The notes below the pieces were generated by a model that was given only the letters and a program-made list of their open reading frames with translations, was not told the DNA's origin and did no database searches. From an uncultured Chthonomonadaceae bacterium (GTDB taxonomy: Bacteria > Armatimonadota > Chthonomonadetes > Chthonomonadales > Chthonomonadaceae), in NCBI GenBank assembly GCA_963835065.1, contig CAWIEK010000064.1:1-58544 (forward strand): a stretch of 58,544 nucleotides of DNA. The letters run 5' to 3'. The position numbers were made by a program, and so were the translations under genes. Below, in pieces: positions 31,562 through 53,532 of this stretch; position 1 is the stretch's first letter; each line of letters opens with the position of its first letter.

Positions 31562-32022
31562 CAGGGTTGGCGCATCTAAACGGAAAAAAAGAGTATGTAG
31601 AGACAGCGTCGAAATCTTGGCAATGCAGCGCTTCCAGCCCAGTGTCTCGTTGTGTCAAGTTGTAATAAGAAGAGGCGTCGTGACCTCAGCAGCGTCAGGG
31701 CGAACGGGGAGAGTATACAGGCATCTTCCAGCACCTCCCTTCCAGGTTAGATGTTGAGAGTTCTTGTTCCTTGTTGCGAGGAACTCGGAACTTTCAACGT
31801 CCCGCCACCTGGCTGATTAGCCATCTAGTTAGTAGACGTGTGTATACTTAGACGAGGCAGATGCAGGGAAGGTTCGTTATTTCTGCTATTTAGGCAGAAA
31901 TGTTTCTACTTTTTTGCGCGTTCTTTTTGGATTGGGCAACCCGGAGGCGGGAGCAGGCGCATTACAGGGGCGAATGACCTACAGCGGGATACGTGTTGAG
32001 CATTTTAGATGCGCCAGCCCTG
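31562..32022 (+). mobile_element. Non-autonomous ISAs1-type element (internal deletion derivative)
   Basis: 19-bp TIRs CAGGG(T/C)TGGCGCATCTAAA at 31562-31580 and 32004-32022; exact 10-bp direct repeat GATAGTAGGG at 31552-31561 and 32023-32032; right end reads VLSILDAPAL, like ISAs1 transposase C-termini. Confidence 0.85.
31589..31901 (+). ncRNA. Putative structured ncRNA / mobile non-coding element, copy 1
   Basis: High similarity to 53311-53532, several stems with compensatory or G-U changes, an extra long hairpin, and a terminal ATTTCTGC/GCAGAAAT hairpin followed by a T-rich run. Strand is inferred. Confidence 0.6.
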
Positions 32023-32075
32023 GATAGTAGGGATACAAACACGCTTTGATAGAGGAAGAATAGGAGGAGGCGGAA

Positions 32076-32627
32076 ATGATTGCAAACCTACGCGCCACTT
32101 TGCAGGACTTGTATGCCGTGCCGGAAAACGGCAAAGCTGAACTTGTAGACGGAGAATTGCAGATCATGTGTCCAACAGGTATCATTCCGGGGCGGGCATC
32201 CATGAAAATCGCTTCCAGCCTGATGCGCCATGAAGAAGAAGTGGGCGGTGGTTACGCCATCCCGGATAATGTTGGCTTTGTGGTACATCTGCCCAACCGC
32301 GAGTCGTTCAGCCCGGACGCGGCGTGGTATGTGGGCGACATCAACAGCATGAAGTTTGCCCAGGCCGCGCCCCGCTTTGCTGTCGAAGTGCGCAGCGAAA
32401 ACGACTATGGCCCGGCAGCGGAACTGGCGATTACGCAGAAGATACGCGACTACTTTGCGGCGGGAACGCTGGTGGTGTGGGACGCCGACCTGCAAGGCGA
32501 GGACGTGATCAAGAAGTACAGCACAGGACAGCCGGACACGCCCATCCTCTACAAGCGCGGCGACATAGCCGATGCCGAGCCTGCCGTTGCCGGATGGCGC
32601 TTTCCCGTTGACAACCTCTTCCGGTAA
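32076..32627 (+). CDS. Uma2 family endonuclease
   Basis: KAELVDG, FSPDAAW, PRFAVEVRS and DYFAAGTLVVW; GGAGG RBS. Confidence 0.92.
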   Translation: MIANLRATLQDLYAVPENGKAELVDGELQIMCPTGIIPGRASMKIASSLMRHEEEVGGGYAIPDNVGFVVHLPNRESFSPDAAWYVGDINSMKFAQAAPRFAVEVRSENDYGPAAELAITQKIRDYFAAGTLVVWDADLQGEDVIKKYSTGQPDTPILYKRGDIADAEPAVAGWRFPVDNLFR

Positions 32628-32687
32628 AGTTTCCTGTTCCGTCCGCATCCATAAAACATGCAGGCAAAAAATAATTTTGCTGCGCCC

Positions 32688-32718
32688 TTGACCCTTACGT
32701 TACGTTATGCCGTACACT
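32688..32718 (+). promoter_or_regulatory. MerR-type promoter with 19-bp spacer (autoregulatory)
   Basis: TTGACC-N19-TACACT with an ACGT-containing dyad in the spacer, upstream of the MerR gene. Confidence 0.7.
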
Positions 32719-32741
32719 CCACAGTGAAAGGAGACGAACCT

Positions 32742-33571
32742 CTGGCAACACGCTTTTATTCTATCGGCGCCTTCGCCGCCAAAGCCTGCGTGTCCCTGCG
32801 AACCCTGCGCTATTACGACGCTGTAGGCTTGCTGTCGCCTTCACAGCATACGGATGCGGGCTACCGGCTGTATTCGGAAGCCGACCTGCTCACCTTACAG
32901 CACATTCTGGCGCTAAAATTTCTCGGCTTTTCGCTGGAAGAAATCAAGCAGTGTTTGCGCCGCGAACCGCAGGAACTAACAACCCTGCTGACGCGCCAGA
33001 AAGCCATGCTGCGCGACAAGAAGCGGCAGATTGATTTAATCCTCAAAGCCATCGAACAGGCCGAAGCGCATTTGGAAACGGGACAGCACAATTGGGAAAG
33101 CATTGCCGGAGTGATCGTACAGATTCAAATGGAACAAAAAACGGAGTGGATGCACAAGTATTTCAACGACGCGCAGTTGCAAAAAATGGACGAACTGCAC
33201 CATGCGTCATATTCGCCGGACGCGCAGGCGAAACTGCAAGCGCGGGGCGCGTGGACGGAAGCGGATCAGGAACGCGCCAATCAGCAATGGACGTATCTGG
33301 CTTCCGAATCGCAAAGCCTGTCGGCAGACGGAGCCGACCCTGCGGGAAAGAAGCGCAGGCGCTTGCCCGATTGAAAAGCGAATTGCTGTTCGGCTTTACG
33401 CAGGGCGACCCCGATGTGGAAGCGGGCCTGAAGACGTTCTGGGACAGCCACAACGCGCTTCCCAAAGATGAGCAGCCGCTTGCCTCCCTCGTTCCCGACA
33501 TGGACGACGCGGGCAGCCGGTTTTTGGATGAGGCCATTGCCATCTACAACGAGCGTCAACAGGAGAGTTAG
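32742..33571 (+). CDS. MerR family regulator (TipA/Mta-like; frameshift near 33345)
   Basis: YSIGAFA...SLRTLRYYDAVGLLSP...GYRLYS...LGFSLEEIK; the TipAS-like C-terminus continues in ORF 33092..33571. Confidence 0.88.
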
Positions 33572-33596
33572 TAGTCCATCAAGGTAGAAGAGTTAG

Positions 33597-33655
33597 GTAG
33601 GGGCGTTGCTTGCTGCGCCCTCGTTTGAGGAGGGTTCAGCAAGCAGAACCCCTAC
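33597..33655. repeat. REP doublet (GTAGGGGC...CCCCTAC)
   Basis: GTAGGGGCGTTGCTTGCTGCGCCC and an inverted partner ending AACCCCTAC, between convergent genes. Confidence 0.7.
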
Positions 33656-33824
33656 AACGTACTCTACCGTTCTACTGCGATAGGCGTTCCGCCAACTGTC
33701 CTGCGGACAGAACTCCCTAACGGCAGACAAACGTGTCCGCAGGACATTTAGCCGCAGGCTCATAGCAAAGGAATTCATTCCGTTGAACCTATTGGCAGAA
33801 CACAGTATCAACATCAAAACTGCA

Positions 33825-35470
33825 TTAAGCCGTCTCCAAAACAAACGTGAGGAAGGCAGCCAGCTGCTTTGTCGTTTGCGCAGTGGCCGGGGCGCAGTCT
33901 GCAACGCGCCCACGCCCGCCGTGCCGAACGGATGCTCTGTGGACGCGGCGGGATAGGCATACACGCCTGCGCTCTCCGTGTCCGCTTCCCCAAATCCTGC
34001 TTTCGCTTCCCCAGGCGGCTGTCCGGCAAACAAGCACCATGCCGCCTGCACGGGAGCCTCCACGCGGCGCGAACGGGAACCACGCCGCACAATGGCGTCC
34101 GTATAGGCATGCATTTTGTTTACATCCTCCTGCGCGTCCTCACCCTGCGCATACACCTTAAACTTTGGGTCAAGGATACACAACTTCCCATCCCAATGCA
34201 GCGCCATATCCGGCTGCATGGCATGAGAACGCGAACAAAACACAAAATTGCTTTCGTTTTCCTTCCTCTGCCCTGCCCCTTGATTGGCACTGGAAAACAG
34301 GGGCTGATAGTACAAAGATAATGATGAGTGATGAGTGATGAGTGATGAATCCATTTTCGATTGACGATTGACGATTGACGATTGACGAATGGCAGTCTTC
34401 TGTCTTCTGTCTTCTGTCTTCTTCTCTTCTGTTCCCTGTTCCCTGTTCCCTGTCCCCTCCTCTTCTTTTCTTTCACCTACCCATCGAAACTCCAACCGGG
34501 ACGCGCGGCCTCGGGCGGGAACGAGGCGCAGGCCGTTTGGGGTGGCTTGCAGCAGGGGGCCGCGCGTTAATTGCCAGCCGGATTGGTGCAGGGCGGCGGC
34601 TACTTGCAGCAAACACCAGATTTCGTATAAGTGCCAGGGTTCCAGGGCGGGAAGCGTCAGCAGGGGGCTGCGCGTCCAGTCGAAGTCGAGCGGATGATGG
34701 AGTTGCCGCCAGGCGCGGTAAAGGGTTTGGTAGGGCAAGGCGCAGCGCAGGATTTGGCTTGCGCATTGGGATGGCGACATTTCGCTGGCGGCAAGAACGG
34801 GGCAATCGCGCAGGGTGGGATGGGAGCGCAAGGTTCGCGCTTCCCGCGTCACCTGCAAGGCGGCTTCCATTTCGGGCTGCGCGTCGCAGAACGCCGCCAA
34901 CCGTCCTAACTCTACAGCCTCATGGATGAAATCGTTCAGGATGTGAACAGCCAGGCGATTGGCCCAGGTGTTTGTGGTGGGCGTGGAACGGGTTTCCAAT
35001 ATGGTTTCGGGCGCCGGGAAACGAGCAGTACCGGCAGCCGGCAGCGACTGCCAGGCGGCGGCAAGGCATGGCGACTGCGCGATGGTGTCGGCTGCCTTTG
35101 GCCCGCCCCGCGCCTGCGCCAACAGTACGGATTGCGCCTGCTGCGCCAACCGCGAATCGGCTCCGTTCAGGATGGCCGCAAGCGCGCTTTGCTGCTGCCG
35201 CCACAGCGCGCGCAGTAAATGCAGCCGTTCCAGTGGCGATACAATGGCCCTGTCGCGCGAACGGGGAGAGGCGGAAGCGGAAATGACCGTTGCTTTCTGC
35301 CGCGCCCCTGCTTCTTCCCCCTTTGATTCCTTTGACGCGGGCTGACTCAGGGTGTAGGCAATATGCCCGATGTCTTCCAGCAGCGTCCGGCGCTCACCCG
35401 GCGATAAACACGCGCTGCCCTCTGTTTTGCGGTTGTCTTCCTCTGTTTGCGACATTCCCTGCTTTCCCAA
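33825..35470 (-). CDS. DUF2357 / PD-(D/E)XK nuclease domain protein (McrC-like)
   Basis: LYEIWCL, MQPDMAL...ILDPKFK and DVNKMHAYTDAI; probable frameshift near 33890; in-frame heptamer-array insert. Confidence 0.75.
34320..34456. repeat. Four consecutive different heptamer arrays inside a CDS
   Basis: (TGATGAG)n, (TTGACGA)n, (TCTTCTG)n and (TGTTCCC)n, each about 3-4 units. Confidence 0.9.
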
Positions 35471-35744
35471 TGGCCTTGCTGCCTGCTTTTATTTCGGATA
35501 GTACGCGAAAATCAACGATTTTACGGTGTTTCCGCTTAAATAGGAGGAACATGGGGGCGCGGCATACAATCATACCGGAGTAATCCTGCCGATATTATCA
35601 GCCAATGATGTAGTTACGGTTCCCGAAGACCGGCTGAATGACATTCGCGGACTTGCCAGACGTTTCGATGCCCCCGTATGGCATGTTGACAAACAAGGCC
35701 GGCGTTAATGTTTCGGCATCTTATACTCAGGATGGAGAAATCCG

Positions 35745-36875
35745 ATGCGCCCACATAACGATCCCGACGTGCTTTCGCAGGCCCTTGCGGAGCCGTCGCG
35801 CCGCGCCCTGCTGGAAAATCTGCGCTATGGGCAAAAGACCGTCACGCAGTTGGTGGAAGCGACCACGCTCAAGCAGCCGAACGTGTCCAACCATCTGGCG
35901 AAAATGAAGCAGCAGGGTATTGTACGGGCGGAACGCATGGGGCGTCAAGTGTATTACTCGCTTTCTGCGCCCTTTGCGGACGTTTTAATGCGGATGCACG
36001 AGATTGCGGCCAACCCCGTTGTTGAAATTGCCGCGCCGCTGCAATCGCCTCTAAAAGTAATAAGCAACGATAAAGCAGGGCAGTCAACGCAAAAAGAACA
36101 AGCCTCCTTCCACGCGCTCATCGGCAGCGCTCCGGCACATTCTCCCCGTGAGGGAGAGTACCATGCGCCCCGGCCTTCTGCCGAAGAAGATTCGGGAGCA
36201 AGCGCCGATTTCCTGCATCCGTATCGGGACGCCTATTTTCGGGCGATGATGGCCGGCGACGAAGAGCAGGCCGTCACCTTAGTCAACGCTCTTGTCGCGC
36301 AGCGCCTGCCGCTGGAAACCATTTATACGGAAGTGTTCGCCAAAAGCATCAATGACATCGGGGAATTGTACCGGCAGGGCATTACCGATGAGGCGCACGA
36401 ACACATGGCATCGGCCATTATGGAGCGCATGATGGCGCGGGTGGCGCAGTTTTATACCCCCGTTGCCCGCGTCTCGTGCCGCGCCCTGCTCGGATGCGTT
36501 GCCGGTAACTGGCACATGCTCGGACTGCGGATGCTGGCGGACGGGCTGAAAACGCTGGGCTGGGAAACCATCTTTTTGGGAGCCAATGTGCCGACCGTCA
36601 GTTTCATTTCCATGGCGCAGGCTGTGAAGCCTGATCTTGTAATTGTATCCTGCGCAATGCAGGAACAGGCGGAAGCGGCGCATGACCTGCTGACCCAACT
36701 CGCGCTGATACGCCAGAAAGAAGTCCAATCCCCTTTTCAAATCGCGGCAGGCGGGCACTACTTTCTCGAACACGCCGAGGGCATAACGCGCCTGCCCATT
36801 GACTTTACCGCCGCCGACTTACGCCAATTCCTGGACCAGATTAAATACCGCTTTCCCGAACAGCCTGTTGCCTGA
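35745..36875 (+). CDS. ArsR-HTH regulator fused to a cobalamin-binding module
   Basis: ALAEPSRRALL...QPNVSNHLAKM...GRQVYYS; cap domain IGELY...AHEHMAS; Rossmann GNWHMLGLRM...FLGANVP...PDLVIVS...AGG. Confidence 0.85.
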   Translation: MRPHNDPDVLSQALAEPSRRALLENLRYGQKTVTQLVEATTLKQPNVSNHLAKMKQQGIVRAERMGRQVYYSLSAPFADVLMRMHEIAANPVVEIAAPLQSPLKVISNDKAGQSTQKEQASFHALIGSAPAHSPREGEYHAPRPSAEEDSGASADFLHPYRDAYFRAMMAGDEEQAVTLVNALVAQRLPLETIYTEVFAKSINDIGELYRQGITDEAHEHMASAIMERMMARVAQFYTPVARVSCRALLGCVAGNWHMLGLRMLADGLKTLGWETIFLGANVPTVSFISMAQAVKPDLVIVSCAMQEQAEAAHDLLTQLALIRQKEVQSPFQIAAGGHYFLEHAEGITRLPIDFTAADLRQFLDQIKYRFPEQPVA

Positions 36876-37008
36876 GCGTCCAATCGTTAAGGCGCGTGGT
36901 TTTTGGCAGGGAAAGCCTGCTAAATATGTCAGTGTAAGCGCTTTATCCGCGCGCAAAGTCTAGTCTGACTAGACAGAAAAAATAATTCATAAATTTTTTC
37001 CAAACCCC

Positions 37009-37037
37009 TTGTCAAATCTGGCTGACAGTGTTATAAT
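37009..37037 (+). promoter_or_regulatory. Near-consensus sigma70 promoter
   Basis: TTGTCA-N17-TATAAT preceded by an AT-rich UP-like tract. Confidence 0.7.
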
Positions 37038-37196
37038 AAGACTGTACAAAGCAACGGGGCAAGACAAACGGTTTTCCCGGCGCTTTTACCAAATTTCCAG
37101 ACGTGCTATTCCGACGCGGGGGGCGTCCGGCGTAGCCGAAGCCTTTATGGAAACAGGCCACTCAGGGAGATAGCCTGCTACTGTAAAGGAGAATAA

Positions 37197-37233
37197 GGGC
37201 GAGACGACTTCTGGGGGGAATGTCGTCTCGCCC
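37197..37233 (+). terminator. Strong hairpin in the ABC ATPase leader
   Basis: 12-bp stem GGGCGAGACGAC / GTCGTCTCGCCC; weak U-tract. Confidence 0.45.
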
Positions 37234-37379
37234 GCCATTCGTTTGGGAAGGTTTCAGGTGTCAGGTGTCAGGTGTCAGGGGCAATGCTGCTGTTATGCGT
37301 AATATAGCACAAAGCAGTACGCTTTTCCTGACACCTGACACCTGACACCTGAAACCTTCCTCTCTGGTATACTACTGCC

Positions 37380-38246
37380 ATGATGCGATTGGAAGCGCGG
37401 GAAGTGACGGGCGGGTATGGGAGCCGGGACGTGGTGCGGGGCGTGAGTCTGGCCTGCGCGTCCGGGGAGTTCGTTGGCCTGATTGGGCCGAACGGCTGCG
37501 GCAAGTCCACCTTGCTGCGCCTGCTGTCGGGCATCTTGCGTCCGCGGCAGGGCGCGGTTTGGCTGGAAGAGCGCGTCCTGACCTCGTTTACGGCGCGGGA
37601 AATTGCGCGGCGTATGGCGTTTGTGCCGCAGGAAGAAAAAGCCGCCTTCGAGTTTACCGTGCAGGATGTGGTCTTGATGGGACGGTTTGCGCACCGCGCA
37701 GGGCTGCGCGGGCCGAACAGCGAGGATTACGCGATTGTGGAACGCGCGCTGACGGCGCTGGACGTCGGGCATCTGAAAGCGCGTTCCATCACGGAATTGT
37801 CGGGGGGCGAGCATCGGCGCGTCCTGCTGGCGCGAGGATTGGCGCAGCAAACGCCCCTATTGCTGCTGGACGAGCCGACCGCGCATTTGGACATAACCCA
37901 TCAGGCGGAACTGCTGGAGCAAACGCGCGGCCTGACCCACGACCCCGTGAATCCCATCGGCGCATTGGCCGCGCTTCACGATCTCAATCAGGCGGCGGAA
38001 TTTTGCGACCGGCTGGTTTTGATGCACGAAGGCCGGGTGCTGGCGCAGGGAACGCCGGATGAGGTTTTACAGCCCGATGGTCTGCGCATCGCTTATCAGG
38101 GTGAAGCGCAGGTAGGCCGCAATCCCGTCACGGGTCGCCCCATGCTGTTCGCCCTGCGCCCCCTCCGCGCTCCTCTCACGGCGCAATTGTCCGATTCATC
38201 CTCCGAAGCAACAAAAAATGAAGCGAAACCGGTAATCAGCCCGTAA
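37380..38246 (+). CDS. ABC transporter ATP-binding protein (iron-complex/cobalamin, FepC/BtuD-like)
   Basis: GPNGCGKST, LSGGE, LLLDEPTAHLD and HDLNQA. Confidence 0.92.
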   Translation: MMRLEAREVTGGYGSRDVVRGVSLACASGEFVGLIGPNGCGKSTLLRLLSGILRPRQGAVWLEERVLTSFTAREIARRMAFVPQEEKAAFEFTVQDVVLMGRFAHRAGLRGPNSEDYAIVERALTALDVGHLKARSITELSGGEHRRVLLARGLAQQTPLLLLDEPTAHLDITHQAELLEQTRGLTHDPVNPIGALAALHDLNQAAEFCDRLVLMHEGRVLAQGTPDEVLQPDGLRIAYQGEAQVGRNPVTGRPMLFALRPLRAPLTAQLSDSSSEATKNEAKPVISP

Positions 38247-38480
38247 ATGACTTAGGAGCGCGGTATTGTAACTGCGCCAGACCTACCCGGACGGTATACT
38301 TTATCGCATAATCGGCAGAAATGATGTATGATATTCTCAGGGCCGATTCGCTGTTTCCAGTTGTCTCGGCGCTATAGCAACCCTGCATCCATCCGTTTCA
38401 ATGCTGATCATGGCGTTGATTTCATTGTTTTCTGTTTTTCTTGTTTTCCCTTGTTCCCATCTGTCTAAGGAGACTTTCGC

Positions 38481-39392
38481 ATGTCTATGCTGTCCCTGCG
38501 CGCCAATCGCCGCGCCCTTTCCGTGTGGAGCGCGTTCGCGCTCGTTCCCGTTGTGCTGACCGGCACACTGACCCTCGCGCCCCGAACCTCCCGCGCCATG
38601 CAGGATGCCACTGACGCCAAAAAGGACGATAAAACCTACACCATCGTTCGCGCCTACAAGGCCAACGAACTCAACCACTACAAAATCGGAGCCAACATCA
38701 AAGCCAACGTTCCCACGCAGGGGGAAGTGAACATTGTTTTGACGATGAAGATGAAGGAAACTATAAAAAGCGTCAAGGACGACGGCACGGCAACGGTAGT
38801 CAGCGACTTTGACGAAGCCACTTTCAAAATGAACGATATGGAGAACGAGATTACGTCGGCTCTGCCTGTTATTACGACAACGGTGGACAAGCAGGGGCAT
38901 ATTCTCACCACGAAATTCGAGGGCGGCGACGCGCAATTCACCACCGGGCAGGGCGCGCAAATGTTGAGTGGCCTGAGTCAGCCCGGCCTATACCCTGCCA
39001 AGCCCGTCAAAGTCGGGGAAGCGTGGAAAATAGACACCACGCAGGATAAGAGCGCCAACAAGAACGCGCCGAAAGTCACCGGCACGGCGACGCTCGTGGC
39101 TCTGGAAACCATAGAGGGGATGCAGACCCTGAAGATCAAGACCACAACGGACAGCGACATCAGCACGGATAACCCGTTGAATCCCGGCGAAAAATTGAAC
39201 GTGAAAGCGCATACGGTGGGCATCAGCAACATCGAAGTGACGACGGGCAAGCTCGTCAAAGCCAGCGCTTCCACGGAAAGCGAAGGCGGGCCGTTCGGCA
39301 AGAGCGCCTCCGAACTGTCCTTCGCGCTAGTCAAAGCCGATCCCAGCGCCAAGCCGGAGAAAAAGGCCGACAAAAAGCCTGACGCCAAGTGA
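38481..39392 (+). CDS. Hypothetical secreted beta-rich protein
   Basis: AGGAG RBS, signal peptide and PAKPVKVGEAW motif. Confidence 0.7.
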   Translation: MSMLSLRANRRALSVWSAFALVPVVLTGTLTLAPRTSRAMQDATDAKKDDKTYTIVRAYKANELNHYKIGANIKANVPTQGEVNIVLTMKMKETIKSVKDDGTATVVSDFDEATFKMNDMENEITSALPVITTTVDKQGHILTTKFEGGDAQFTTGQGAQMLSGLSQPGLYPAKPVKVGEAWKIDTTQDKSANKNAPKVTGTATLVALETIEGMQTLKIKTTTDSDISTDNPLNPGEKLNVKAHTVGISNIEVTTGKLVKASASTESEGGPFGKSASELSFALVKADPSAKPEKKADKKPDAK

Positions 39393-39501: not shown

Positions 39502-39525
39502 TACATTTGCAATTTAGCCATCAAT

Positions 39526-44400: not shown

Positions 44401-46138
44401 TGGATCGGGAGTTGGCGCGGCTGGGCGGCAATCGGGTGATCGCGCTGCACCGGGGCGACGAGATCAAGGGGCAGGCCGAAACATTCCGGCAGTGGCTCGA
44501 ACTGGCCGCGCGCATGTTGGGCGAAGACCCGACGAGTTCCAATGCCGCCGATGCCGCCAATCAAGTCCGGCTGAAAATCACGTTTTTGGAGGACGGAAAC
44601 GCGCCTGAATTGACTTCGGAACCGGCGCGAGTTCGCAATCGCCGCGTACCGGGCGTGGAAGCGCGGGTGACGGCGAACCGCGAACTGCTGAAAGAAGTGA
44701 TTTTAGGCAGCCGTTCCACCCGCTTCCTTGCCTTCGACATTTCGGGCACGGACCTGACGTATGAAACCGGCGACCATGTGGCGATTTATCCGCACAATCC
44801 CACTGCGCTCGTGGAACGAACCTGCCGCCTGCTCCGTGTCAACCCGGACGCGCGGTTTACCACATCTCTGGTTGGGCGTGACGGAAGCGGCGTAGAAGGC
44901 GACACGGCGTATCCCGAACCTGTTACGGCGCGGCAAATTCTGACGGAAGACTTCGATTTGTCCTTGCGCGACCCGTTTGACGAACTGATGGCCGCGCTTG
45001 TCGCGTCGGCCCAAAACGGGGGCGAGAAAGAGCGGCTGCAAGCGTGGGCGGAAACCCTGCGCCGGGGCGATGAGGACGAGGACTGCCGCGCCTTAAAGAA
45101 GCACCTGGGCGACTACTTTATCACGCTTGCCGACCTGCTGGAAGCGTTTCCCTCCGCCACGCCCGCCCTGGAAACGCTGATCGAAATTCTGCCCCGGCAA
45201 AAACCGCGCCTGTATTCCATTTCGTCCTGTTCGCTGCTGCATCCGAAAGAGATTCACGTCACGGTAGGTGTGATTCAAGTGACAACTGAAGGGGGTAAAA
45301 CGCGGCAGGGCTTATGTTCCAACTACCTCGCGTCCCTGAACCCGGAAACCGGCGCAACGGTTCGCCTGACGGTGCGGGCGTCCAATTTCCGCCCGCCGCA
45401 GGATGTGAGCGCCCCATGCTGCTGGTCGGGCCGGGCACGGGGCTTTCCCCGCTGATCGGCTTTTTGCAGTACCGCGAACTGCAATTGGGCCAACTCCGCG
45501 CCGCGCGTTTATTGGAAAGCACCGCCGCGAACAATGGAAACGGGCAGGAAAGCGCAATTTCACCGGAAACCACTGCCGCACTGGAAAACGGGAACGCGCC
45601 CGCAAACGCCGATGGGTTCAAGAACAGCGAGAGCAGCGCGGGAGGCGACAATCCGGCGATGAGTTCCGATCCCGCGATTCTGGTCGGCACGACGCGCCTG
45701 TACTTCGGCTGCCGCAATCTCAACGATTACCTGTATCAGCAGGAATTGGAAGCGTGGCGGGATGCGGGCGTCCTGACACATCTGGAAGTGGCGTTTTCGC
45801 GGCTTGGGGAACAAAAATCCTACGTGCAGCACTTGATCGGGCAGAAGGGGCGCGACATCTGGCAAACGCTGTCGCAGCCCAACTGCCACTATTTTGTGTG
45901 CGGCGACGCGAAAATGGCGGACGACGTGTTCGAGACGCTGATGACGATTGCCAAAACGGAGGGCGGCCTTTCCCACGCGCAGGCGGTGGAGTTCTTCCTG
46001 CAAATGCAGGCGGAAAACCGCTATATCACGGATGTGTGGGGCGTCCTGCTCAACTTTCAGAAGGCGATGGCCGATGTGCAGGAAGCCAAGTACACGCAGG
46101 GCGAGCGCTGGCTCAAGCGCGTCACGGCGGGCGTATAA
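41496..46138 (+). CDS. nos: Multidomain nitric oxide synthase: N-terminal beta domain, two globin-like domains, NOS oxygenase, FMN/FAD/NADPH reductase (frameshift near 45412)
   Basis: AGGAGG RBS before GTG 41496; AWRNASKCVGRIAW heme-thiolate; PFNGWFMETEI; WSWVVPP; YGSETGTAE; PRLYSISS; LVGPGTGLSP; YFGCRN; FVCGD; DVWG. Confidence 0.93.
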
Positions 46139-46239
46139 AGTCATTAATCCATCACACAATGAGAGATAGCCGCCTTTACGAATATGCTCTGCGGCTTTCT
46201 GCGGTATCATTGTAGTAGTTACTGGTGTAGGAGGGAACG

Positions 46240-46530
46240 ATGGAACATTCCGGCTACGATGGTGAGGAAGTGAAGCGGCGGGGTAAGGCGTGGTATGCGC
46301 AAACCGTTCGCGCACAGGTGGAAACCGAGGCCAATATCGGCAAAGTGGTTGTGATTGACGTGGAAACGGGCGCGTATCTGGTAGACGACGATGTTCTCAA
46401 TCCGGTACGCGCCGCGCTTGCGCTGCGGCAGCAACATCCGGGCGCGATGCTGTGGGGCGAACGCATTGGGTACAATGCCGTGTATGCGTTGGGCGGAGCC
46501 GTTCTTTGCAGGTCGGCACAATACTGTTAA
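46240..46530 (+). CDS. Small hypothetical protein (DUF5678-like)
   Basis: GKVVVIDVETGAY...RIGYNAV; GGAGG RBS. Confidence 0.65.
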   Translation: MEHSGYDGEEVKRRGKAWYAQTVRAQVETEANIGKVVVIDVETGAYLVDDDVLNPVRAALALRQQHPGAMLWGERIGYNAVYALGGAVLCRSAQYC

Positions 46531-46582
46531 AACGTCGTTCCCGCAACCCTGAAACTTGAATGATTACCTGACAAGTGACCCA

Positions 46583-47488
46583 CTAATGCCTCGCCGCCTT
46601 CCGGTACGCGGCGGGCGACACGCCCACTTGCCGGGTGAACAGGCGGGAAAAGTAGAAGCGATTGCCGAAGCCACACGCTTCGGCAATCGTATCTATGGTG
46701 TCGTCTGTGAACAGCAATTTTTGCGCGGCCAGTCGGACTCGCCGTTCCTGTATGTACTGCCCCGGCGTTTGCCCCACGCACTCGCGGAAGCGGCGAATGA
46801 AGTGATTTTCGCTCAGGTGGCAGTCCCGCGCAAGTTGGGCAACGGACAACGCGGTTCCCAATTCCCGCTCTACGCGCTCGATGGCTGGCAGGAGGGGCTG
46901 CAGAACGTGGCGTAGTTGATGACTGCGCTGCTGCTGCGCGGGCGACAGGTCGCGCAGGTACAGGGCCAGTCCCTCATACAGCAGCGCCTTTACGCGGCAT
47001 TGCAGCGCAAGGTCGGACTGCGGCGATACCCGCGCCATGTCCGCAAGGATGCTTTGCATGGCCTGCGTCAAACGCGCCTCCTGCGGCAATGGAATAGGAT
47101 GGGCGAACAACTCCCGCATAACCACTTCCGGCAGGCCAATCACATCAAAATGAACATAGAAATGCTGCACCGGATGGGTACAGCGGCAGTTGAATCGCAC
47201 TCCGGCAGGCACAAAGGTCAAGCGTCCGGCTTCCAGTGGGTACAGGCTGTCTGGCAATTCCAGCGCGGCCCCGTCCCGGTCATTGAAGTAGAAGCGCCAG
47301 AAACTGCTTTGCACACTCTGCGCGTTCCAATTCGTGTCTATCGGCAAATAATCCATTTTGAACAGCCGCAAATGCAGATGATCGTCCGCCCATGCTGTTG
47401 CCTGGCCTGCGGTTTCGCGGGTATTCTCCTGAAAATGCCGGTGTTCGGTGTTCAGGTGTTCGGTGTTCGGACAATCCAGCATCTTCAT
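46583..47488 (-). CDS. AraC family transcriptional regulator (start uncertain)
   Basis: LSENHFIRRFRECVGQTPGQY...IAEACGFGNRFYFSRLFTRQVGVSPAAYR. Confidence 0.9.
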   Translation of the reverse strand: MKMLDCPNTEHLNTEHRHFQENTRETAGQATAWADDHLHLRLFKMDYLPIDTNWNAQSVQSSFWRFYFNDRDGAALELPDSLYPLEAGRLTFVPAGVRFNCRCTHPVQHFYVHFDVIGLPEVVMRELFAHPIPLPQEARLTQAMQSILADMARVSPQSDLALQCRVKALLYEGLALYLRDLSPAQQQRSHQLRHVLQPLLPAIERVERELGTALSVAQLARDCHLSENHFIRRFRECVGQTPGQYIQERRVRLAAQKLLFTDDTIDTIAEACGFGNRFYFSRLFTRQVGVSPAAYRKAARH

Positions 47489-47835
47489 GCTCTCAGATGA
47501 ATACCGTTCATGCGGACGCTCCTGAGTAACACTGTGTTTCGCGTTGATGGCGCTGTGTTGGGTGTTGTTCTCTGCTCCGCGCAGGGCTTCGCTGCCGAGA
47601 TTGCGTTTCGTTTCGCGCTTCGCTTCAACCTTTTGTGGCATCTCGTTGCTTCCCGCCTCGCGCCATTGTGGTGAAATCCGATACAAAGCGCGTGAAGATG
47701 TACATGGTATTTCGAGTCGGTGTGGTTGTATAGTATACAAGAGAAGGAGAGTGATGAATGATGAACGATGAACAACTCCCCATACTCATTCATCACTCAT
47801 CACTCATCATTCATCATTTTGCAACTGGAGACCTC

Positions 47836-48768
47836 ATGCCTACCGCCAACATTACCGCCGAAGAATTCAGCCTTGCCAATCTGTCCCGCGTCAGTGTGCA
47901 GGATTTGGAAGTGTTTGCCGACGATTTGGACGTGTCGCGCGCCGCCGCGATTTATCAGGAGCGTGGCTGCCTGGTTGTACGCGGCCTGATGCGAAAGTAT
48001 CTGGCCGACATTCAGCGCGACATTGAAGCCGGGGCGCAGCAGTCCCTTGCCCTGCTGGAACAGGCGAAGCAGGTTCCCGAAGGCTGGGTCACGCCCAACG
48101 GGACGCTGTTTTTGCCCGCGCCCGCCCACTTCGCCCGCGACAAGCAGATCATGGTATTGGGCGCGGTCAGCTATTATACCAGCGCGGCGTTTTTCCAGTC
48201 CGCGTTTGATACGCGCAGCGTAGACATTGTGGAAGCGATTCTTGGCACTGACATCGAACTGTTTTTGAACGGGCAAGTATTGTATAAGGAGCCGGTGGGC
48301 GGGCATCCCAAAAATCTGCATCAGGACTGCGCGTACTTTGAACACAAGTTTGAAGGCCCGGTCGGGCAGTTGAATTACGCCGTTGATACCGATCTGGTGA
48401 ACGGTGCGCTGTACGTGGTTCCGGGTTCGCACCGCCTGGGTACGCTGCATCACATTGACACGTTTTCGCACCTGGGACTTGATCCCAATGCCTGGCCCTG
48501 GGAGGCCGCGCTGCCGATTACGGGGCAGGCAGGCGACTCTATTTTCTTCCACGTCAAGACTATTCACGGCTCGAAAGAAAACCATTCCGAAAAGCCGCGC
48601 CCGGTTTTTATCAACCGTTATCGCCGCGCCGACGATTACGTGGTTGTCAATGCCAGCACGAAAGCCAACCGCGCCGAGAATGAAAAACGGGCGGCGCAGG
48701 CGAATAAAGAGAACCAGAAGGGCTTGATGGTGCGCGGTTTTCGTCCTTTCACCGAGGGAGCGCGGTAA
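47836..48768 (+). CDS. Phytanoyl-CoA dioxygenase (PhyH) family Fe(II)/2OG oxygenase
   Basis: LHQD, NGALYVVPGSH, FHVKTIHGS..N and R; divergent from the AraC gene. Confidence 0.9.
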   Translation: MPTANITAEEFSLANLSRVSVQDLEVFADDLDVSRAAAIYQERGCLVVRGLMRKYLADIQRDIEAGAQQSLALLEQAKQVPEGWVTPNGTLFLPAPAHFARDKQIMVLGAVSYYTSAAFFQSAFDTRSVDIVEAILGTDIELFLNGQVLYKEPVGGHPKNLHQDCAYFEHKFEGPVGQLNYAVDTDLVNGALYVVPGSHRLGTLHHIDTFSHLGLDPNAWPWEAALPITGQAGDSIFFHVKTIHGSKENHSEKPRPVFINRYRRADDYVVVNASTKANRAENEKRAAQANKENQKGLMVRGFRPFTEGAR

Positions 48769-48795
48769 ACTCCTTAACATCTTGTACCCATTGGC

Positions 48796-48936
48796 GCGAC
48801 GCACTGAAGTGCTTCGCTGTCAGGGCGTACCGCCGTTCGTCCACGCAAGTGGACGAGTCCTGCTATACTTTGGCGTTCGTCGGCGAAGGCTGACGAACAG
48901 CCGCAGGCTCTAAAGCGAAGCACTTCAGTGCGTCGC
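48796..48936. repeat. REP/PATE-like palindromic element
   Basis: Perfect 23-bp terminal IR GCGACGCACTGAAGTGCTTCGCT; inner hairpins CGTCCACGCAAGTGGACG and CGTCGGCGAAGGCTGACG. Confidence 0.85.
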
Positions 48937-48961
48937 CACAACACCAACATGAAAGCGGCTT

Positions 48962-49832
48962 ATGACAAACGATACCAATCACTCCACGCCTTTCCGCGTC
49001 GCCGTTGTGCAGATGGACCCGAAGTTGGGCGATATCTCGGACAATCGCGCGCTTGAATTGCGAAAGACCATATTTTGGAAGCGGGCAAGAGCGGGAGCGC
49101 AGCCTTGTTGTTTTTCCCGAGTGCGCGCTTTCCGGCTATGTGTACCATAGCGCCGAAGAAGCGCGTCCGTCTGCCGTTGCCGCCGACAGCGGCACTATCG
49201 GCTTGTTTGCTACCTATTGCCGCCTCGCCAACATCTATGCCATCATTGGTTTTCTGGAACATGAGGAAGCGACGGACACCATTTACAACAGCGCGGCGGT
49301 GATTGGGCCGGAAGGATTGGTTGCCTGTTACCGGAAGTGCCATTTGCCGGTTTTGGGCATAGACCGTTATGTGGGGCGGGGCAATGAACTGCCGATTATC
49401 GAACTGCCGTTTGCGCGCATCGGCATTTTGATTTGTTATGACATGCGCTTTCCCGAAGCCGCCCGCTCGCTGGCGTTGCGGGGCGCGGATGTGCTGGTCG
49501 TGCCTACAAATTGGCCGGAAGGCGCGGACAGCGCGCCGGAGTTTTTGACCCGCGCCCGCGCTTGGGAAAATCGCATGTACGTGGTCGCGTGTAACCGCGT
49601 GGGCGTGGAGCGGGGAACGCGCTTTATCGGGCGCAGCCAGATCGTCGCGCCGGATGGCGCGTTTCTGGCGCAGGCGGACGGGGAAACCGAAACCATCCTG
49701 TACGCCGACATTGACCCGCAAAAAGCGCGGCAAAAGAAAGTGATTTTTGAACCCGGCGTGTTTGAACTCGACCCGGTTGGCGGGCGCAGGCCGGAACTCT
49801 ATGGCGCTTTGACGACAAACGCGCCACAATAA
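48962..49832 (+). CDS. Carbon-nitrogen hydrolase (nitrilase/amidase) family (frameshifts near 49050-49110)
   Basis: VAVVQM, VVFPEC, YRKCHL and ICYDMRFPE (E-K-C triad). Confidence 0.9.
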
Positions 49833-49885
49833 CGGTATAACATAGCAACATTAAACAGACTGCGCGTGAGGAAACAAGGATTGCT

Positions 49886-50416
49886 ATGAACCATCTATTT
49901 ATGCGGCGTTCCAATCTCGACGATTTGCCGCCCCTGCCTGCCCTGCCGCCTGGTTATGTGCTGCGCGAGTACCGCGAAGGCGATATGGACGCGCTTTCCG
50001 ACCTGATGCGCAAAGCGTTTGCCGACGAGCAATGGACACCGGAACGGCTGCGGGGCATCTTGATTGACGCGCCCGACGTGAAGAAAGTGTTTGTCGTTGA
50101 GTTTGGCGGCCATCCGGTTGCCAGCGCGTCCGCCCGCGTTTTGCCGGATAAATATCCGAATTCCGGGTACGTGCATTGGGTTGCCGTTGACCCCGCGCAT
50201 CAGGGGCAGAAATTGGGCTACTTCATCACGCTCGTCACGCTGCACGAGTTCAAGCGCATGGGCCTGCACGACGCCGTGCTGGAAACCGACGACCACCGCC
50301 TGCCCGCGATTAAAACCTATCAGAATTTAGGATTTGCGCCGGAACACCGTCATGACACGCATCTGGAACGCTGGGCGATTGTGATTGGCAATCTGCTCAC
50401 CGCCGCGAATCTGTGA
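49886..50416 (+). CDS. GNAT family N-acetyltransferase
   Basis: VAVDPAHQGQKLG acetyl-CoA motif and AIKTYQNLGF. Confidence 0.9.
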   Translation: MNHLFMRRSNLDDLPPLPALPPGYVLREYREGDMDALSDLMRKAFADEQWTPERLRGILIDAPDVKKVFVVEFGGHPVASASARVLPDKYPNSGYVHWVAVDPAHQGQKLGYFITLVTLHEFKRMGLHDAVLETDDHRLPAIKTYQNLGFAPEHRHDTHLERWAIVIGNLLTAANL

Positions 50417-50485
50417 GGTCGTCCCGGTTGTTGTCTTCCAAGTAACAAATCCTTTAGGGCAGACTTGAGTCTACATAAACGCGAT

Positions 50486-50641
50486 TGTTACTTTGGGAGT
50501 GACCTTGCTCCGCAAGTGGGGATGCTGAACCATGATTTTTATGATTTTTGTGATTACCATGATGAGCCATGCCATGATTAGTTGCTCAAAGTCATGGTTC
50601 AGCATCCCAACCGGCGGAGCAAGGTCACTCCAAAAGTAACA
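50486..50641. repeat. Long inverted-repeat element (MITE-like)
   Basis: About 55-bp imperfect arms TGTTACTTT(G/T)GGAGTGACCTTGCTCCGC...GGGATGCTGAACCATGA enclosing ATGATT-type short repeats. Confidence 0.8.
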
Positions 50642-50675
50642 GCCCTCACACCGGAAATTACCTGGAAGATGAAGA

Positions 50676-51827
50676 ATGAAAGTAAAATGGATGCGGCACG
50701 AATATAAGCGCGAAGTTCTTTTATGGCAGTGGTTTTCTCTTGCGGCGTGTGTGCTGCTGAATTTGTTGGCGCGTGGGGCGGGCGGGCAGCAAGCCACGCT
50801 GATACAGCGTCCTGGCCCGATTTCGCCTGCGCATGTGCTGGTCGTTATCAACTCCAAAAGTCCCGATTCGGTTGCTATCGGGGCGTATTATGTTCAGAAA
50901 CGGCATATTCCGCGCTCCAATGTGTGTACGGTTTCCTGCCCCACTGTGGAAGAGTGTTCCAAAATGGAGTACGAAACGCAGGTGGAAGCGCCCATTATCC
51001 GCTTTCTTTCCCGAACCCTCGGCAGCAACACCCCCACCGATCAATCGTTCGCGCAGTCCATTGACTTTATTGTGCTGACAAAGGGCTTTCCCATTCGCAT
51101 GCACGAGGGGCTATGGAGTACGGACAGCATCCTTGCCTCGCTCGGCCAGACGCTGCGCAAGGATCACATTCCCAACCCCTATTTCAATAAGGCGGAGCGG
51201 TTCACGTTCGCCAAATTCCACTGCCGGCTTGTTACCCGGCTGGAAGGCTATACCCGCGCCGACTGCCTGAAACTTGTGGACAATTCCCTTGCCGCCAAAC
51301 CGCTCAAAGGGCCGTTTTTCCTCCACACGGGGCCGGGGCATGAGGATAACAACTACAAATTCGTCAATGACGGGATGCGCGCGGCGGATTTCCTGCTCAA
51401 AGCCAAAGGGTTCCAAAGCACCCTGGATACGGGCGAGGCGTTTCCGGGAAATCAAAAGAACCTGATGGGCTACTTTTCGTGGGGGAGTAATGACGCGCAT
51501 TTTGATAAAGCCGCGTACAACAGCCTGAGTTTCGCGCCCGGCGGCATTGCGGAAACCGTCGTGTCCACCAGCGGGCGCACGTTCCGCAACCCCGCCGAGC
51601 CGGGGCAATCCCTGATTGCGGACTTAATCGCGCAGGGCGTGACGGGCTGCAAAGGCTACGTGTCCGAACCCTACGCGGACGCCATTGCCCACGCCGGCCT
51701 GCTGTTCGACCGCTACACCAACGGCTTTTCGCTGGCCGAAAGTTTTTACGCGGCCACGCGCTACCTGTGCTGGAAAGATGTCGTCATCGGCGACCCGCTG
51801 TGCGCCCCGTATGCCGCCGCGAAGTAA
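50676..51827 (+). CDS. TIGR03790 family secreted protein
   Basis: VLVVIN..SPDSVAIGAYY, LVTRLEG, YFSWGSND, VSTSGRTF, GYVSEP and GDPL. Confidence 0.8.
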   Translation: MKVKWMRHEYKREVLLWQWFSLAACVLLNLLARGAGGQQATLIQRPGPISPAHVLVVINSKSPDSVAIGAYYVQKRHIPRSNVCTVSCPTVEECSKMEYETQVEAPIIRFLSRTLGSNTPTDQSFAQSIDFIVLTKGFPIRMHEGLWSTDSILASLGQTLRKDHIPNPYFNKAERFTFAKFHCRLVTRLEGYTRADCLKLVDNSLAAKPLKGPFFLHTGPGHEDNNYKFVNDGMRAADFLLKAKGFQSTLDTGEAFPGNQKNLMGYFSWGSNDAHFDKAAYNSLSFAPGGIAETVVSTSGRTFRNPAEPGQSLIADLIAQGVTGCKGYVSEPYADAIAHAGLLFDRYTNGFSLAESFYAATRYLCWKDVVIGDPLCAPYAAAK

Positions 51828-51852
51828 ACGTTTGTTGCTCTGCGTTTTTGCT

Positions 51853-52638
51853 TCACCGCGCGTTCACCGCTTGTTGAGGTAACAGCGCTCCTGCAAAGTC
51901 TTCCAGTCGCGCTGTTGGCTGCGCCACAATTCGGATTGGCTGACCAATGGGACAATGACGGCCTGTGATTTGCAGCGTTTGTATCTCACCTGCTTCTAAT
52001 TGTAACAACTGATGCAACGTTTCCAGTGCCGGCCTGCGCCCTTGCGTATCTGTTTGTGGTTCCTGTGCAGGTTCGGGGCTGTTGGAAGCCGCAAGCCATG
52101 CCGCCGCTTCCATCAATTCCTCAACCGCTCTTTGCGCCGCAGAAGTCGCTTCCTGCCAGCGCAAGGAGTCATAGTCGCCTGTCAGTTCTTCAAGGAGCGG
52201 CAGGCGCAATCCAATCTGACCGCCGCCCGATGGTAACGTCATCATATACAGGTCGCAGGCGCGGCGAAGGTCCTCCAAAAACTGACTGCGGCTGTCTTCT
52301 GTATGGATGCGGGAAGTCAGCGCAACGGCGATGTTCCAAACGCCGGTTTGCAGCGTATGCAGGTAGGCGCTGAGAACACGCGCCGGAATGTCTGCCCCGT
52401 TCTCCTGCGAACCTTCCCGCCGCAGCCAAATGTCGGCCTGACGCTCCAATGCCAATGTAACCCCTGTCATATCGTCCAGTTGTCGCGTAAACTCCTGTAT
52501 CTGCGCCAAAGCCCCTTCCGCCAGAACCGCGTACAGCGCCGGATGTTCAGGCAGTTCCCGCTCCTTGATCGCAGCAAGGGCGCGATACATGCCTCCCAGC
52601 AATTCTACTGTTTGGCTAATTTGCTCGGTTGTTGTCAT
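51853..52638 (-). CDS. Hypothetical protein coupled to the DUF6932 gene
   Basis: ATGA overlap with the upstream gene; helical N-terminus. Confidence 0.65.
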   Translation of the reverse strand: MTTTEQISQTVELLGGMYRALAAIKERELPEHPALYAVLAEGALAQIQEFTRQLDDMTGVTLALERQADIWLRREGSQENGADIPARVLSAYLHTLQTGVWNIAVALTSRIHTEDSRSQFLEDLRRACDLYMMTLPSGGGQIGLRLPLLEELTGDYDSLRWQEATSAAQRAVEELMEAAAWLAASNSPEPAQEPQTDTQGRRPALETLHQLLQLEAGEIQTLQITGRHCPIGQPIRIVAQPTARLEDFAGALLPQQAVNAR

Positions 52639-53096
52639 AACGTAATCCTCAGAACGCCCTTCTTCAACTCAGAACCGCGAACTTGCGCGTACAGATAGAT
52701 ATATTCCTCGTAATCGCTTGAATTGAGGAGCGCGGCCTTCACATCAAGCCGATATCGTTTTTCTACGCGCCGATGCGAAACAAGATTGTACTGAAATGGA
52801 AGCAGGGAAGCCGTTATGTCGTGCTGCTCCGGCAGAACTACGAGAACATCAATGTCGTTGGGTGGCTCGTTGAGACGCGCTTCCTTATCGGTCGTAAAAC
52901 TGCCGTTTACAATCACCGCGATTGCCAGATTAGCGGACTTCAATTCTGTCATATACTCTTGAAACTTGGCGAAAAGTGTCGGGCGTTGGTCACTGCCGCG
53001 AGTAAAGCCGCCAAAGCGCCGTTTTATCTCCTCCAGAGCGCAGTCATGTATTCCAACAGGCAGCAAACCATTTTCATTCAATTCCGGTATCGGCAT
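52635..53096 (-). CDS. DUF6932-like minimal nucleotidyltransferase
   Basis: NGLLPVGIH, VNGSFTT...PNDIDV (GS..DxD) and KGVLRI. Confidence 0.75.
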   Translation of the reverse strand: MPIPELNENGLLPVGIHDCALEEIKRRFGGFTRGSDQRPTLFAKFQEYMTELKSANLAIAVIVNGSFTTDKEARLNEPPNDIDVLVVLPEQHDITASLLPFQYNLVSHRRVEKRYRLDVKAALLNSSDYEEYIYLYAQVRGSELKKGVLRITL

Positions 53097-53310
53097 CTCG
53101 CATCCTGCTGTCCTTCCGACAAGAATACATCTATTATAGCGTACATTCGCGGCAAAGGTCTGAACCGAAGAGCGCGAGTGAAACATCCTGCCAAGACCGC
53201 GGTTCTGCACATAGTGCCCGTAAATTTATCGCACCCGAACTAGTGGGAACGCCGACCTTTGCCAACGGGAAGTGATGCAAGCAAAGGATGAGGGATAAGA
53301 GATAAGAGAT

Positions 53311-53532
53311 AAGAGTATGTAGAGGCAGCGTCGAAATCTTGGCAATGCAGCGCTTCCAGCCCGATGTCTCGTTGTGTCAAGTTGTAGAAGAGAGGCGTCG
53401 TGGCCTCGTGAGCGTCAGGGCGAACGGGAGGGGTGAAACATAGGACTGCACCTCCCTTCCTGTGGGTATAACGCCTGAACGGTAGACGTATGTGTATGTT
53501 TAGACAGGGTGAGTGAGGCAAAGGTTTCGTTT
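53311..53532 (+). ncRNA. Putative structured ncRNA / mobile non-coding element, copy 2
   Basis: Shares the left boundary AAGAGTATGTAGAG and about 120 nt of near-identity with copy 1; lacks copy 1's long hairpin; begins within a (GATAAGA)n array. Confidence 0.6.

Follow-up and report, generated by a model that had tools for sequence, protein, structure and literature searches.

The window analysed here is a stretch of 58,544 nucleotides from an uncultured Chthonomonadaceae bacterium of soil (contig CAWIEK010000064.1 of GenBank assembly GCA_963835065.1), and it contains two copies of a non-coding element that are probably members of a genus-restricted, non-autonomous, mosaic family of repeats resembling miniature inverted-repeat transposable elements (MITEs). 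The family, as we understand it, is intergenic, present in high copy number, moved in trans, and carried in at least two unrelated transposon shells. The two copies in the window are homologous, with 110 of 120 bases the same (91.7%) counting from AAGAGTATGTAGAG (positions 31589 and 53311), and past these first 120 nt they part ways with insertions and deletions. A preliminary description made from the letters of the window had recognized both copies as a structured, transposon-associated element and had suggested that it encodes a guide or bridge RNA. It was right that both copies are real and related, but they are not a pair: the search for further copies that it proposed, conducted by BLAST with the core of 120 nt as query, brings up 162 copies in the genome to which the window belongs, and 161 of these matches span the core from end to end.

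This genome (G000) consists of 8.0 Mb in 71 contigs and is 91.9% complete, and the other two members of its genus (g1) are G001, which is 97% complete, and the sister species G002. The family is detected by BLAST in three of 41 related genomes, and a search of the order with profile R1 is positive in three of 68 genomes, all of genus g1, with no match in the 65 genomes of the order outside the genus. Copy numbers differ among the three: G000 has 162 and G002 has at least 43, and in G001 the profile matches 14 times, these copies falling into two diverged subfamilies. A scan of metagenome contigs with TGGCAATRCAGCGCTYYCA returned 50 loci, none of which extends past a chance match of 19–36 nt. 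In a scan of genome collections, 28 stretches among the at least 29 listed are titled as metagenome-assembled genomes of Chthonomonadaceae and one is a contig titled Solirubrobacteraceae; in the latter the core copy (L120:594-730) stops after about 135 nt, where unrelated coding sequence of high GC content takes over, and it is likely an assembly or binning chimera, not a second host. No account of such an element was found in the accessible portions of the literature on Chthonomonas repeats and on miniature inverted-repeats of Armatimonadetes.

Alignment of all copies gives a consensus unit of about 250–330 nt with a modular organization. It starts with a purine-rich lead-in ending in AAAAAGAG, and continues with a core of about 150 nt, from TATGTAGAG to CCTCCCTTCC, in which a stem (P1) closes a 21-nt loop and is followed by short hairpins. 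Downstream of the core is an optional hairpin composed of GTTGATA-type heptamers, of which there are between none and five per copy, with one or more in 95 of the 162 copies. The 3′ part is made of a TAGTAGAC...TTTAGAC segment and then a AAGGTTCG... segment that runs into a T-rich end; the tail motif is present in 150 of the 162 copies, and 3′ module matches in G000 lie beside a core in 98 of 99, 30 of 30 and 23 of 23 cases (the 99 being the matches to the tail segment of copy 2). Variability of the alignment columns rises along the unit, from 0.05 in columns 6–66 to 0.14 in columns 67–120 and 0.23 in columns 121–150. The stems named in the preliminary description can all be read in the sequence, namely TGAC/GTCA versus TGGC/GTCA, GGGAG...CTCCC, and the long hairpin of 46 nt that copy 1 has and copy 2 does not; this last, however, is not a peculiarity of copy 1 but the variable, heptamer-built module that 95 copies share. 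The statement that the element has no conserved open reading frame (ORF) is borne out, as ORFs across the copies sit in differing frames and there is neither codon periodicity (Kruskal p=0.75) nor a third-position excess. A coding role is ruled out by these frame switches between copies together with the absence of a third-position excess.

The shell in which copy 1 resides (type A, with CAGGG ends) is a true MITE. Its 19-bp inverted ends are complementary at 18 of 19 positions, and a perfect 10-bp direct repeat, GATAGTAGGG, is present on both sides. The right-end segment of this MITE occurs 18 times in the genome, each time with a core. The orthologous site in G002 is empty, with an unaligned spacer of about 55 nt between the flanking genes versus 546 nt in G000; the reverse situation is seen for a type-A copy of G002 (L074), which is bordered on either side by the 9-bp repeat GCAAACGCA and whose G000 site is empty, and two more sites (L079/L117 and L099) are filled in G002 and empty in G000. 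At C53_471980 the flanks form a direct repeat matching at 7 of 10 positions (counted by eye). The combination of CAGGG ends and a target-site duplication (TSD) of 8–10 bp is one that we take to be typical of ISAs1. The preliminary description had placed copy 1 27 bp inside the end of an insertion sequence (IS) and had built an argument on insertion without a TSD. The distance is correct, copy 1 beginning 27 bp inside the terminal inverted repeat (TIR; 31562), but the surrounding entity is a 461-bp MITE and not a full IS, and the argument falls with the TIR and the 10-bp TSD. That the element is non-coding and associated with transposons is supported.

A second, type-B shell has different ends, GGGTYCGTAAA..CTTCCCGAAC as compared with CAGGG..TCTAAA for type A. 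In its full members the unit is bordered by a left arm on one side and a right arm (GCGGGATGGTTGCTGTTGGCG...) on the other, with GGGTTCGTAAATCTATAACTTCCCGAAC and GTTCGGGAAGTTAAAATTTACAGACCC as outer ends. Among the 162 copies, marks of at least one type-A end are found in 23, marks of type B in 77, of neither in 63 and of both in one; the unit behaves, as had been supposed, like a module separable from its surroundings. Copy 2 has a left type-B arm only: the approximately 94 nt in front of it align with other copies, the left-arm motif being present in 31 of the 162. The sharp start in unrelated contexts that had been ascribed to both copies is thus no true edge in copy 2, where positions 53217–53310 are also repeated. 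Homology between arms fades gradually with distance from the core, and the core would appear to start sharply because the shell arms decay while it stays conserved, the boundary being that between a conserved interior and decayed arms. An imperfect end of about 25 bp is common to the type-B arms and a palindromic mini-element, and a 12-mer from this end, AACTTCCCGAAC, occurs 110 times in the genome. The mini-element itself is about 90 bp long (GGGTCCGTAAATCTATAACTTCCCG ... CGGGAAGTTATAGATTTACAGACCC) and is found, for example, downstream of C37_205126 and C32_2671 in G000. Junctions of shell-less copies are unreadable in three filled/empty site pairs, where the intergenic DNA is too diverged. 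The coordinates of all features are collected in Table 1.

Table 1. Features of the two copies of the element and of their shells in the window
Feature	Position	Strand	Remarks
TSD GATAGTAGGG, left copy of 10 bp	31552-31561		identical to 32023-32032
TSD GATAGTAGGG, right copy of 10 bp	32023-32032		identical to 31552-31561
Type-A shell, 461-bp MITE with copy 1	31562-32022	+	inverted ends; orthologous region of G002 without the MITE
Left TIR CAGGGTTGGCGCATCTAAA	31562-31580	+	19-bp inverted ends
Right TIR TTTAGATGCGCCAGCCCTG	32004-32022	+	19-bp inverted ends
Core of copy 1, AAGAGTATGTAGAG to CCTCCCTTCC	31589-31743	+	profile R1, 113.5 bits
Stem P1, copy 1	31600-31648	+	arms 31600-31606 and 31642-31648; loop 31613-31633
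Hairpin H2, copy 1, GAGG(CGTCGTGA)CCTC	31672-31687	+	compensatory changes in diverged copies
Variable 46-nt hairpin module, copy 1	31753-31798	+	GTTGA(G/T)A heptamers
3′ tail, copy 1 (TAGTAGAC...TTAGAC, AAGGTTCG, T-rich end)	31826-31925	+	hairpin and T-run 31878-31902
Type-B left arm before copy 2 (CTTTGCCAACGGGAAGTG...)	53217-53310	+	extent is coverage by other copies
(GATAAGA)3 array closing the type-B left arm	53294-53314	+	read from the sequence
Core of copy 2	53311-53460	+	profile R1, 114.6 bits
Stem P1, copy 2	53322-53370	+	arms 53322-53328 and 53364-53370; inner arms 53330-53334 and 53356-53360
Loop of P1, copy 2, AATCTTGGCAATGCAGCGCTT	53335-53355	+	closed by P1
Hairpin H2, copy 2, GAGG(CGTCGTGG)CCTC	53392-53407	+	covariation in the 77-copy alignment
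3′ tail, copy 2 (GGTAGAC...TTTAGAC, AAAGGTTTCG, T-rich end)	53461-53571	+	hairpin and T-run 53513-53539

We propose that the unit would spread by cut-and-paste or copy-type DNA transposition inside small shells that are acted on in trans. Transposition in a shell is evident for the one with CAGGG TIRs and a 10-bp TSD, and presumably applies to the type-B shell as well. After insertion the arms of the shell would decay and the core would stay conserved, either because some protein binds it as a cis-acting structure of nucleic acid or through gene conversion among copies.

The placement of the copies in G000, evaluated against our own ORF-based gene calls, has several features. First, none of the 162 copies is inside a gene; all are intergenic, with 87 between co-directional, 35 between divergent and 34 between convergent genes, in rough proportion to the intergenic length of these classes (64%, 21% and 16%). 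Second, within co-directional gaps the unit has the same orientation as the genes in 63 cases and the opposite orientation in 24 (binomial p=3.5e-5), and 44 of the 99 copies with a co-oriented upstream gene start no more than 30 nt past its stop codon. Third, this bias is local: the strand of the element shows no bias with respect to GC skew (79:82, 80:78 and 67:76 in windows of 10, 25 and 50 kb), nor is there a link to regional gene strand, and the balance with GC skew rules out replication-coupled insertion. Finally, both copies in the window have a hairpin and T-run at their plus-strand 3′ end, differing in sequence, and strict terminator-like sites are found on the plus strand of 47 of the 162 copies and on the minus strand of 24. 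No sigma-70-like promoter was found in copy 1 or copy 2. The local co-orientation suggests that the core matters in transcripts, as a 3′ untranslated region (UTR) or intergenic RNA, and because of this bias an effect in transcripts would be the likeliest kind of function.

The loop closed by P1 (AAT..TGGCAAT.CAGCGCT; profile columns 24–44) is near-invariant, with an identity of 94% over 77 copies that represent all three species. Of 30 G002 copies, ten share their locus with a G000 copy, and with the addition of copy 2 and its G002 counterpart (L064) there are 11 same-locus pairs. Identity in these pairs is 85% for the opening 50 nt of the core and about 50% for the element's 3′ half, as compared with 77–83% in the mostly coding flanks 200–400 nt upstream. 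We regard these comparisons as evidence of constraint acting on the core across species, and since the identity of the loop extends over three species it could not come from gene conversion within one genome alone. For at least nine G002 copies (loci L051–L080) the two flanks fall on different contigs of G000, and at L064 the left flank corresponds to C3 and the right flank to positions 54086–54693 of the window, beside copy 2. Family copies thus often seem to lie at synteny breakpoints, a pattern that fits recombination between them, and the swapped 3′ halves together with the many synteny breaks at copies indicate that conversion or recombination probably acts on them too.

Support for a structure of the unit is modest. 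The comparison with Rfam that the preliminary description had proposed (Rfam 15) yields no family at gathering score in the whole window and nothing related at E<=10 on either copy, and at 10 further loci from the three genomes the element is likewise without a match, the only matches being to two flanking tRNAs. At one locus of G001 (L181:1-155) a diverged copy is followed, at a distance of about 150 nt, by two tRNA genes in the same orientation. Among 68 copies the four drawn hairpins, including TGAC/GTCA and GGGAG/CTCCC, have a covariation score of 0.074 versus 0.076 for shuffles, 353 of 500 shuffles being as high. The small GTAGAC stem, whose loop had been described as closed by AGT/ACT in one copy and AAC/GTT in the other, pairs no better than when arms are swapped between copies (5.74 versus 5.58), and the complementarity of the 5′ and 3′ termini is also no better than with swapped arms. 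There is no alifold consensus fold in the tail region, mutual information among the 162 copies reflects mainly subfamily linkage and not base pairs, and a brute-force helix scan was uninformative, the core being too conserved.

A different picture is obtained with a 77-copy profile alignment, to which seven diverged copies from G001 and three odd copies from G002 have been added. Compensatory changes in P1 and in the GAGG/CCTC hairpin (H2) appear only once the seven diverged G001 copies are added. In P1, pair 15:56 is C-G in 63 copies and A-U in seven, pair 16:55 is A-U, C-G or G-C, and pair 20:48 is U-G or G-C; in H2, pair 94:111 is A-U in 70 copies and U-A in five of the diverged ones, and two copies (L049 and L186) have a third form of the hairpin, TCGG/CCGA. 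Overall, 11 of 21 pairs have changed on both sides versus 6.4 expected, a number reached by none of 500 shuffles, and the covariation score is 0.109 versus 0.073 in shuffles and 0.025–0.048 with slid partners. Structure-preserving divergence, as claimed in the preliminary description, is for the most part without statistical support, and the lack of significant covariation that was named there as refuting its interpretation holds for typical copies and is lifted in part by a single diverged subfamily.

A number of observations weigh against our interpretation. Transposition with TIRs and a TSD is seen for one shell, while 63 of the 162 copies have no shell and six retain both type-B ends, and no TSD was established at copy 2 or at shell-less copies. 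The 3 kb around the 162 G000 copies show no enrichment of a transposase or any other protein family, none of these copies has a transposase next to it, and an autonomous partner was not found: G000 lacks PF13808 (associated with ISAs1), the other genomes and other DDE families being unsearched. Several same-locus pairs differ completely in their 3′ halves, which fits recombination or gene conversion, a neutral route to conservation of the core. Thermodynamic and alifold support for a fold is weak: that of copy 2 has an unremarkable −89.2 kcal/mol on the plus strand (z=−1.14) and −53.3 kcal/mol on the minus strand (z=+0.65); RNAalifold on 68 copies from the three genomes gives −8.1 kcal/mol with none of 14 pairs compensated, and a second alifold gives −7.1 kcal/mol with almost no covariation term. 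The covariation in the 77-copy alignment derives largely from one seven-copy subfamily, with few independent events, and because the changes trace to few events, mostly in that one subfamily, we consider the support for the P1 stem and the H2 hairpin to be modest. Wobble counts favor neither strand (G-U 132 versus A-C 153), and as they pick no strand a DNA hairpin is as possible as an RNA hairpin.

Two other explanations of the conserved core bear directly on this evidence. The unit could be a functional structured RNA family, either a small RNA gene or a 3′-UTR module used by the host or by the element, with its copies kept by selection, the MITE shells being mere vehicles and the invariant 21-nt loop a recognition site for a protein or RNA; we hold this to be possible but somewhat doubtful. 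The loop is more alike among the three species than the mostly coding upstream flanks are, the stems that close it show compensatory changes, and the unit is found in two unrelated shells as well as alone. Its co-orientation with genes, which is unlinked to GC skew or regional gene strand, the 3′ hairpin and T-run with different sequences in the two window copies, and the excess of strict terminator-like sites on the plus strand would all be accommodated. Against it, there is no match to an Rfam family, the fold is no more stable than those of shuffles, no sigma-70-like promoter was found in the window copies, the tails lack a consensus fold, a clean terminator-like hairpin is present in just 47 of the 162 copies, and wobble pairs resolve no strand. 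Alternatively, the core would be the decaying, functionless interior of a MITE, its similarity among copies arising from recent bursts of a few master copies and from gene conversion among more than 100 similar copies. Copies at the same locus in G000 and G002 often have unrelated 3′ halves after a shared core, the flanks of G002 copies often lie on different G000 contigs, in agreement with frequent recombination at the core, and typical copies are without covariation. We nevertheless judge such a neutral repeat decidedly unlikely, in that the loop is nearly invariant even in G001, which has only 14 matches in two diverged subfamilies, variability is graded along the unit and not merely between subfamilies, and an orientation bias with respect to adjacent genes is not expected from neutral decay.

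The inference of a bridge or guide RNA of a transposon, be it the bridge RNA of IS110 or the omega RNA of TnpB/IscB, fares much worse, and is now highly improbable. The element is non-coding, carries hairpins, lies beside or inside other repeats, and in most copies has no visible TIR or TSD, all of which speaks for the idea. However, copy 1 does have both, and G000 has no match to PF01548 (IS110 DEDD); PF02371 (Transposase_20) has none in G000, none in G001 and one in G002. In the flanks of this lone IS110-like gene (L201; about 750 bp upstream and 1.4 kb downstream, searched with filters off) the best match to the core has 0 bits and E=2.4, and the link to IS110 is rejected on these grounds. 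The suggestion that variable loops match flanking targets also fails, since the unit is no closer to its own 45-nt flanks than to those of other copies, the longest shared string being 6.6–6.8 nt versus 6.6 nt (both sides and both strands; p=0.28–0.97, n=160–162), and tabulation of genes near the 162 copies, as the preliminary description advised, links no protein family to them. At 11 of 12 TnpB-like loci all that is shared with the element is heptamer-run matches, and at the twelfth (C7) a single core copy lies upstream of the tnpB ORF and not at its 3′ end, which we read as coincidence; a link to TnpB and its omega RNA is thus rejected too. The absence of an Rfam match extends to HEARO and the IS605-orfB families, which we take to be among the members of that database.

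An element of the repetitive extragenic palindromic (REP) or REPIN (REP doublet forming hairpins) type, moved as single-stranded hairpins by a REP-associated tyrosine transposase (RAYT, a Y1 HUH transposase), is barely credible. GTAG lies just 5′ of the hairpin in REP sequences, and the same motif directly precedes the P1 stem; copies of the unit are hairpin-rich, intergenic and numerous, and Y1_Tnp genes are present in all three genomes. Yet the 12 Y1 loci in the three genomes of the genus, searched to a distance of about 1.5 kb at E<=1, have no core nearby, the one RAYT-like gene at L194 is flanked by a different palindrome with arms of 54 nt, and the unit is far longer than a REP. Replication-strand bias is typical of single-strand transposition, and the element has none. 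The RAYT link is rejected on account of the Y1 loci and the L194 palindrome, and taken jointly, bridge, guide and REP-type mechanisms are very unlikely. The palindrome beside the RAYT-like Y1 gene (L194:1265-1397, in G000:C51) has arms that are 91% complementary and, with that gene, is probably a separate REPIN-RAYT system; sequence similar to it (..CTTCGCTGTA.GGCGTTCCGCC..GTCCT.CGGACA) occurs downstream of several copies of the element.

We tentatively consider a stronger proposition, which at present seems rather unlikely, that the unit is a functional nucleic-acid module (stem, invariant 21-nt loop and hairpins) recognized by a putative trans-acting protein of the genus, which has hitch-hiked into at least two unrelated shells, is selected at about 160 intergenic sites and acts in transcripts. 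If so, its roles might include 3′-end formation, stability or recruitment of a factor, and it would represent, for Armatimonadota, a new class of RNA element that is dispersed and serves regulation or mobility. If the core is merely carried along by MITEs, the family is another of the many repeats confined to one lineage, useful mainly for genome annotation and for explaining assembly breaks and loss of synteny. What stands out is that one interior, conserved across species to about the same degree as mostly coding flanks, is carried by two unrelated shells. Its near-invariant loop and transcription-linked orientation bias make this interior a concrete candidate for a signal, in RNA or in DNA, to which a protein binds in a phylum that has received little study, and the family a natural case for studying how different transposons capture and spread non-coding modules.

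The surroundings of the copies contain further features. Copy 1 is situated between an ORF resembling alanyl-tRNA synthetase and a Uma2-family gene, which point apart, and copy 2 between two minus-strand genes, to both of which it is opposed. The former ORF (30453-31415, minus strand) matches only positions 1–261 of the 552-position profile for class II alanyl-tRNA synthetase and is followed by shorter ORFs on the same strand, and because of this partial match and these shorter ORFs the gene may be split or frame-shifted. Heptamer microsatellites are widespread in G000, with 135 (GGATGAA)n, 351 (GTTGATA)n and 47 (GATAAGA)n motif hits at no more than one mismatch, most of them away from the element; examples are at 53294-53314 of the window and near 107.6 kb of G000:C37. 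One (GTTGATA)n array forms a hairpin just past an apparent stop codon, beside a truncated TnpB-like ORF. The GGAUGAA repeats may be read as repeats of a Shine-Dalgarno-like AAGGA plus AUG. In the core, a hairpin GGGAGG...CCUCCCUUCC (31716-31743 and 53427-53460), whose second run is ACCUCCUUUC in G001 copies, pairs what we take to be a Shine-Dalgarno-like run with a run that presumably resembles the 3′ end of 16S rRNA. Another dispersed repeat family, with the double-hairpin motif CCGGGGATTGAAAATCCCCGGCAGGAAAGTGCAAGCGTCCTGCGGACGC, occupies the same intergenic regions (for example downstream of C16_147197, C3_217618 and C35_30372). A tandem repeat at 55099-55393 of the window has a 125-bp period, 2.4 copies and 73% matches, and related arrays are present at G000:C1:123419-124015 and in C6, C9 and C11 of G002.

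The element can be compared with several known systems. The bridge RNA of IS110 is encoded in the left or right non-coding end beside the recombinase ORF and is expressed as a discrete RNA, and its internal loops pair both with the target that flanks the element and with the ends of the element itself (Durrant et al. 2024, PMC11208160). The present family resembles it in being non-coding, in its stem-loops, in its link to mobile DNA and in often lying beside repeats, but it is not in an IS110 non-coding end, the recombinase gene is absent from two of the three host genomes, no loops match target or donor, orphan copies number in the hundreds, and copy 1 has TIRs and a TSD; its putative fold, one long stem with a 21-nt terminal loop and short hairpins, also seems unlike the bridge-RNA architecture (PMC11208160). 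With REP and REPIN sequences it has in common a GTAG followed by an imperfect hairpin, an intergenic location, high copy number and frequent position just past stop codons, and it differs in its length of 250–330 nt versus about 35 nt and in not lying beside a Y1 gene. The BOX elements of Streptococcus pneumoniae offer a parallel, in that boxA-boxB(n)-boxC is modular with a variable internal repeat (here zero to five heptamers), forms hairpins, is intergenic in more than 100 copies and has obscure means of mobility; sequence and phylum are unrelated, however, and the present element has a 150-nt core with a near-invariant loop and sits in some copies inside shells with TIRs and TSDs. It is most like MITEs such as the Correia/NEMIS elements of Neisseria, which are non-coding, shorter than 600 bp and present in tens to hundreds of intergenic copies: it is 250–460 bp long and non-coding, with 162 copies and presence or absence at orthologous sites, and shares with them the TIR and TSD of copy 1, empty sites in the sister species and the lack of a transposase of its own. 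Where it departs from MITEs is that 63 of the 162 copies are without a recognizable shell, that no cognate IS was found, that the interior and not the ends is the most conserved part, and that two TIR shells unrelated to each other contain this same interior.

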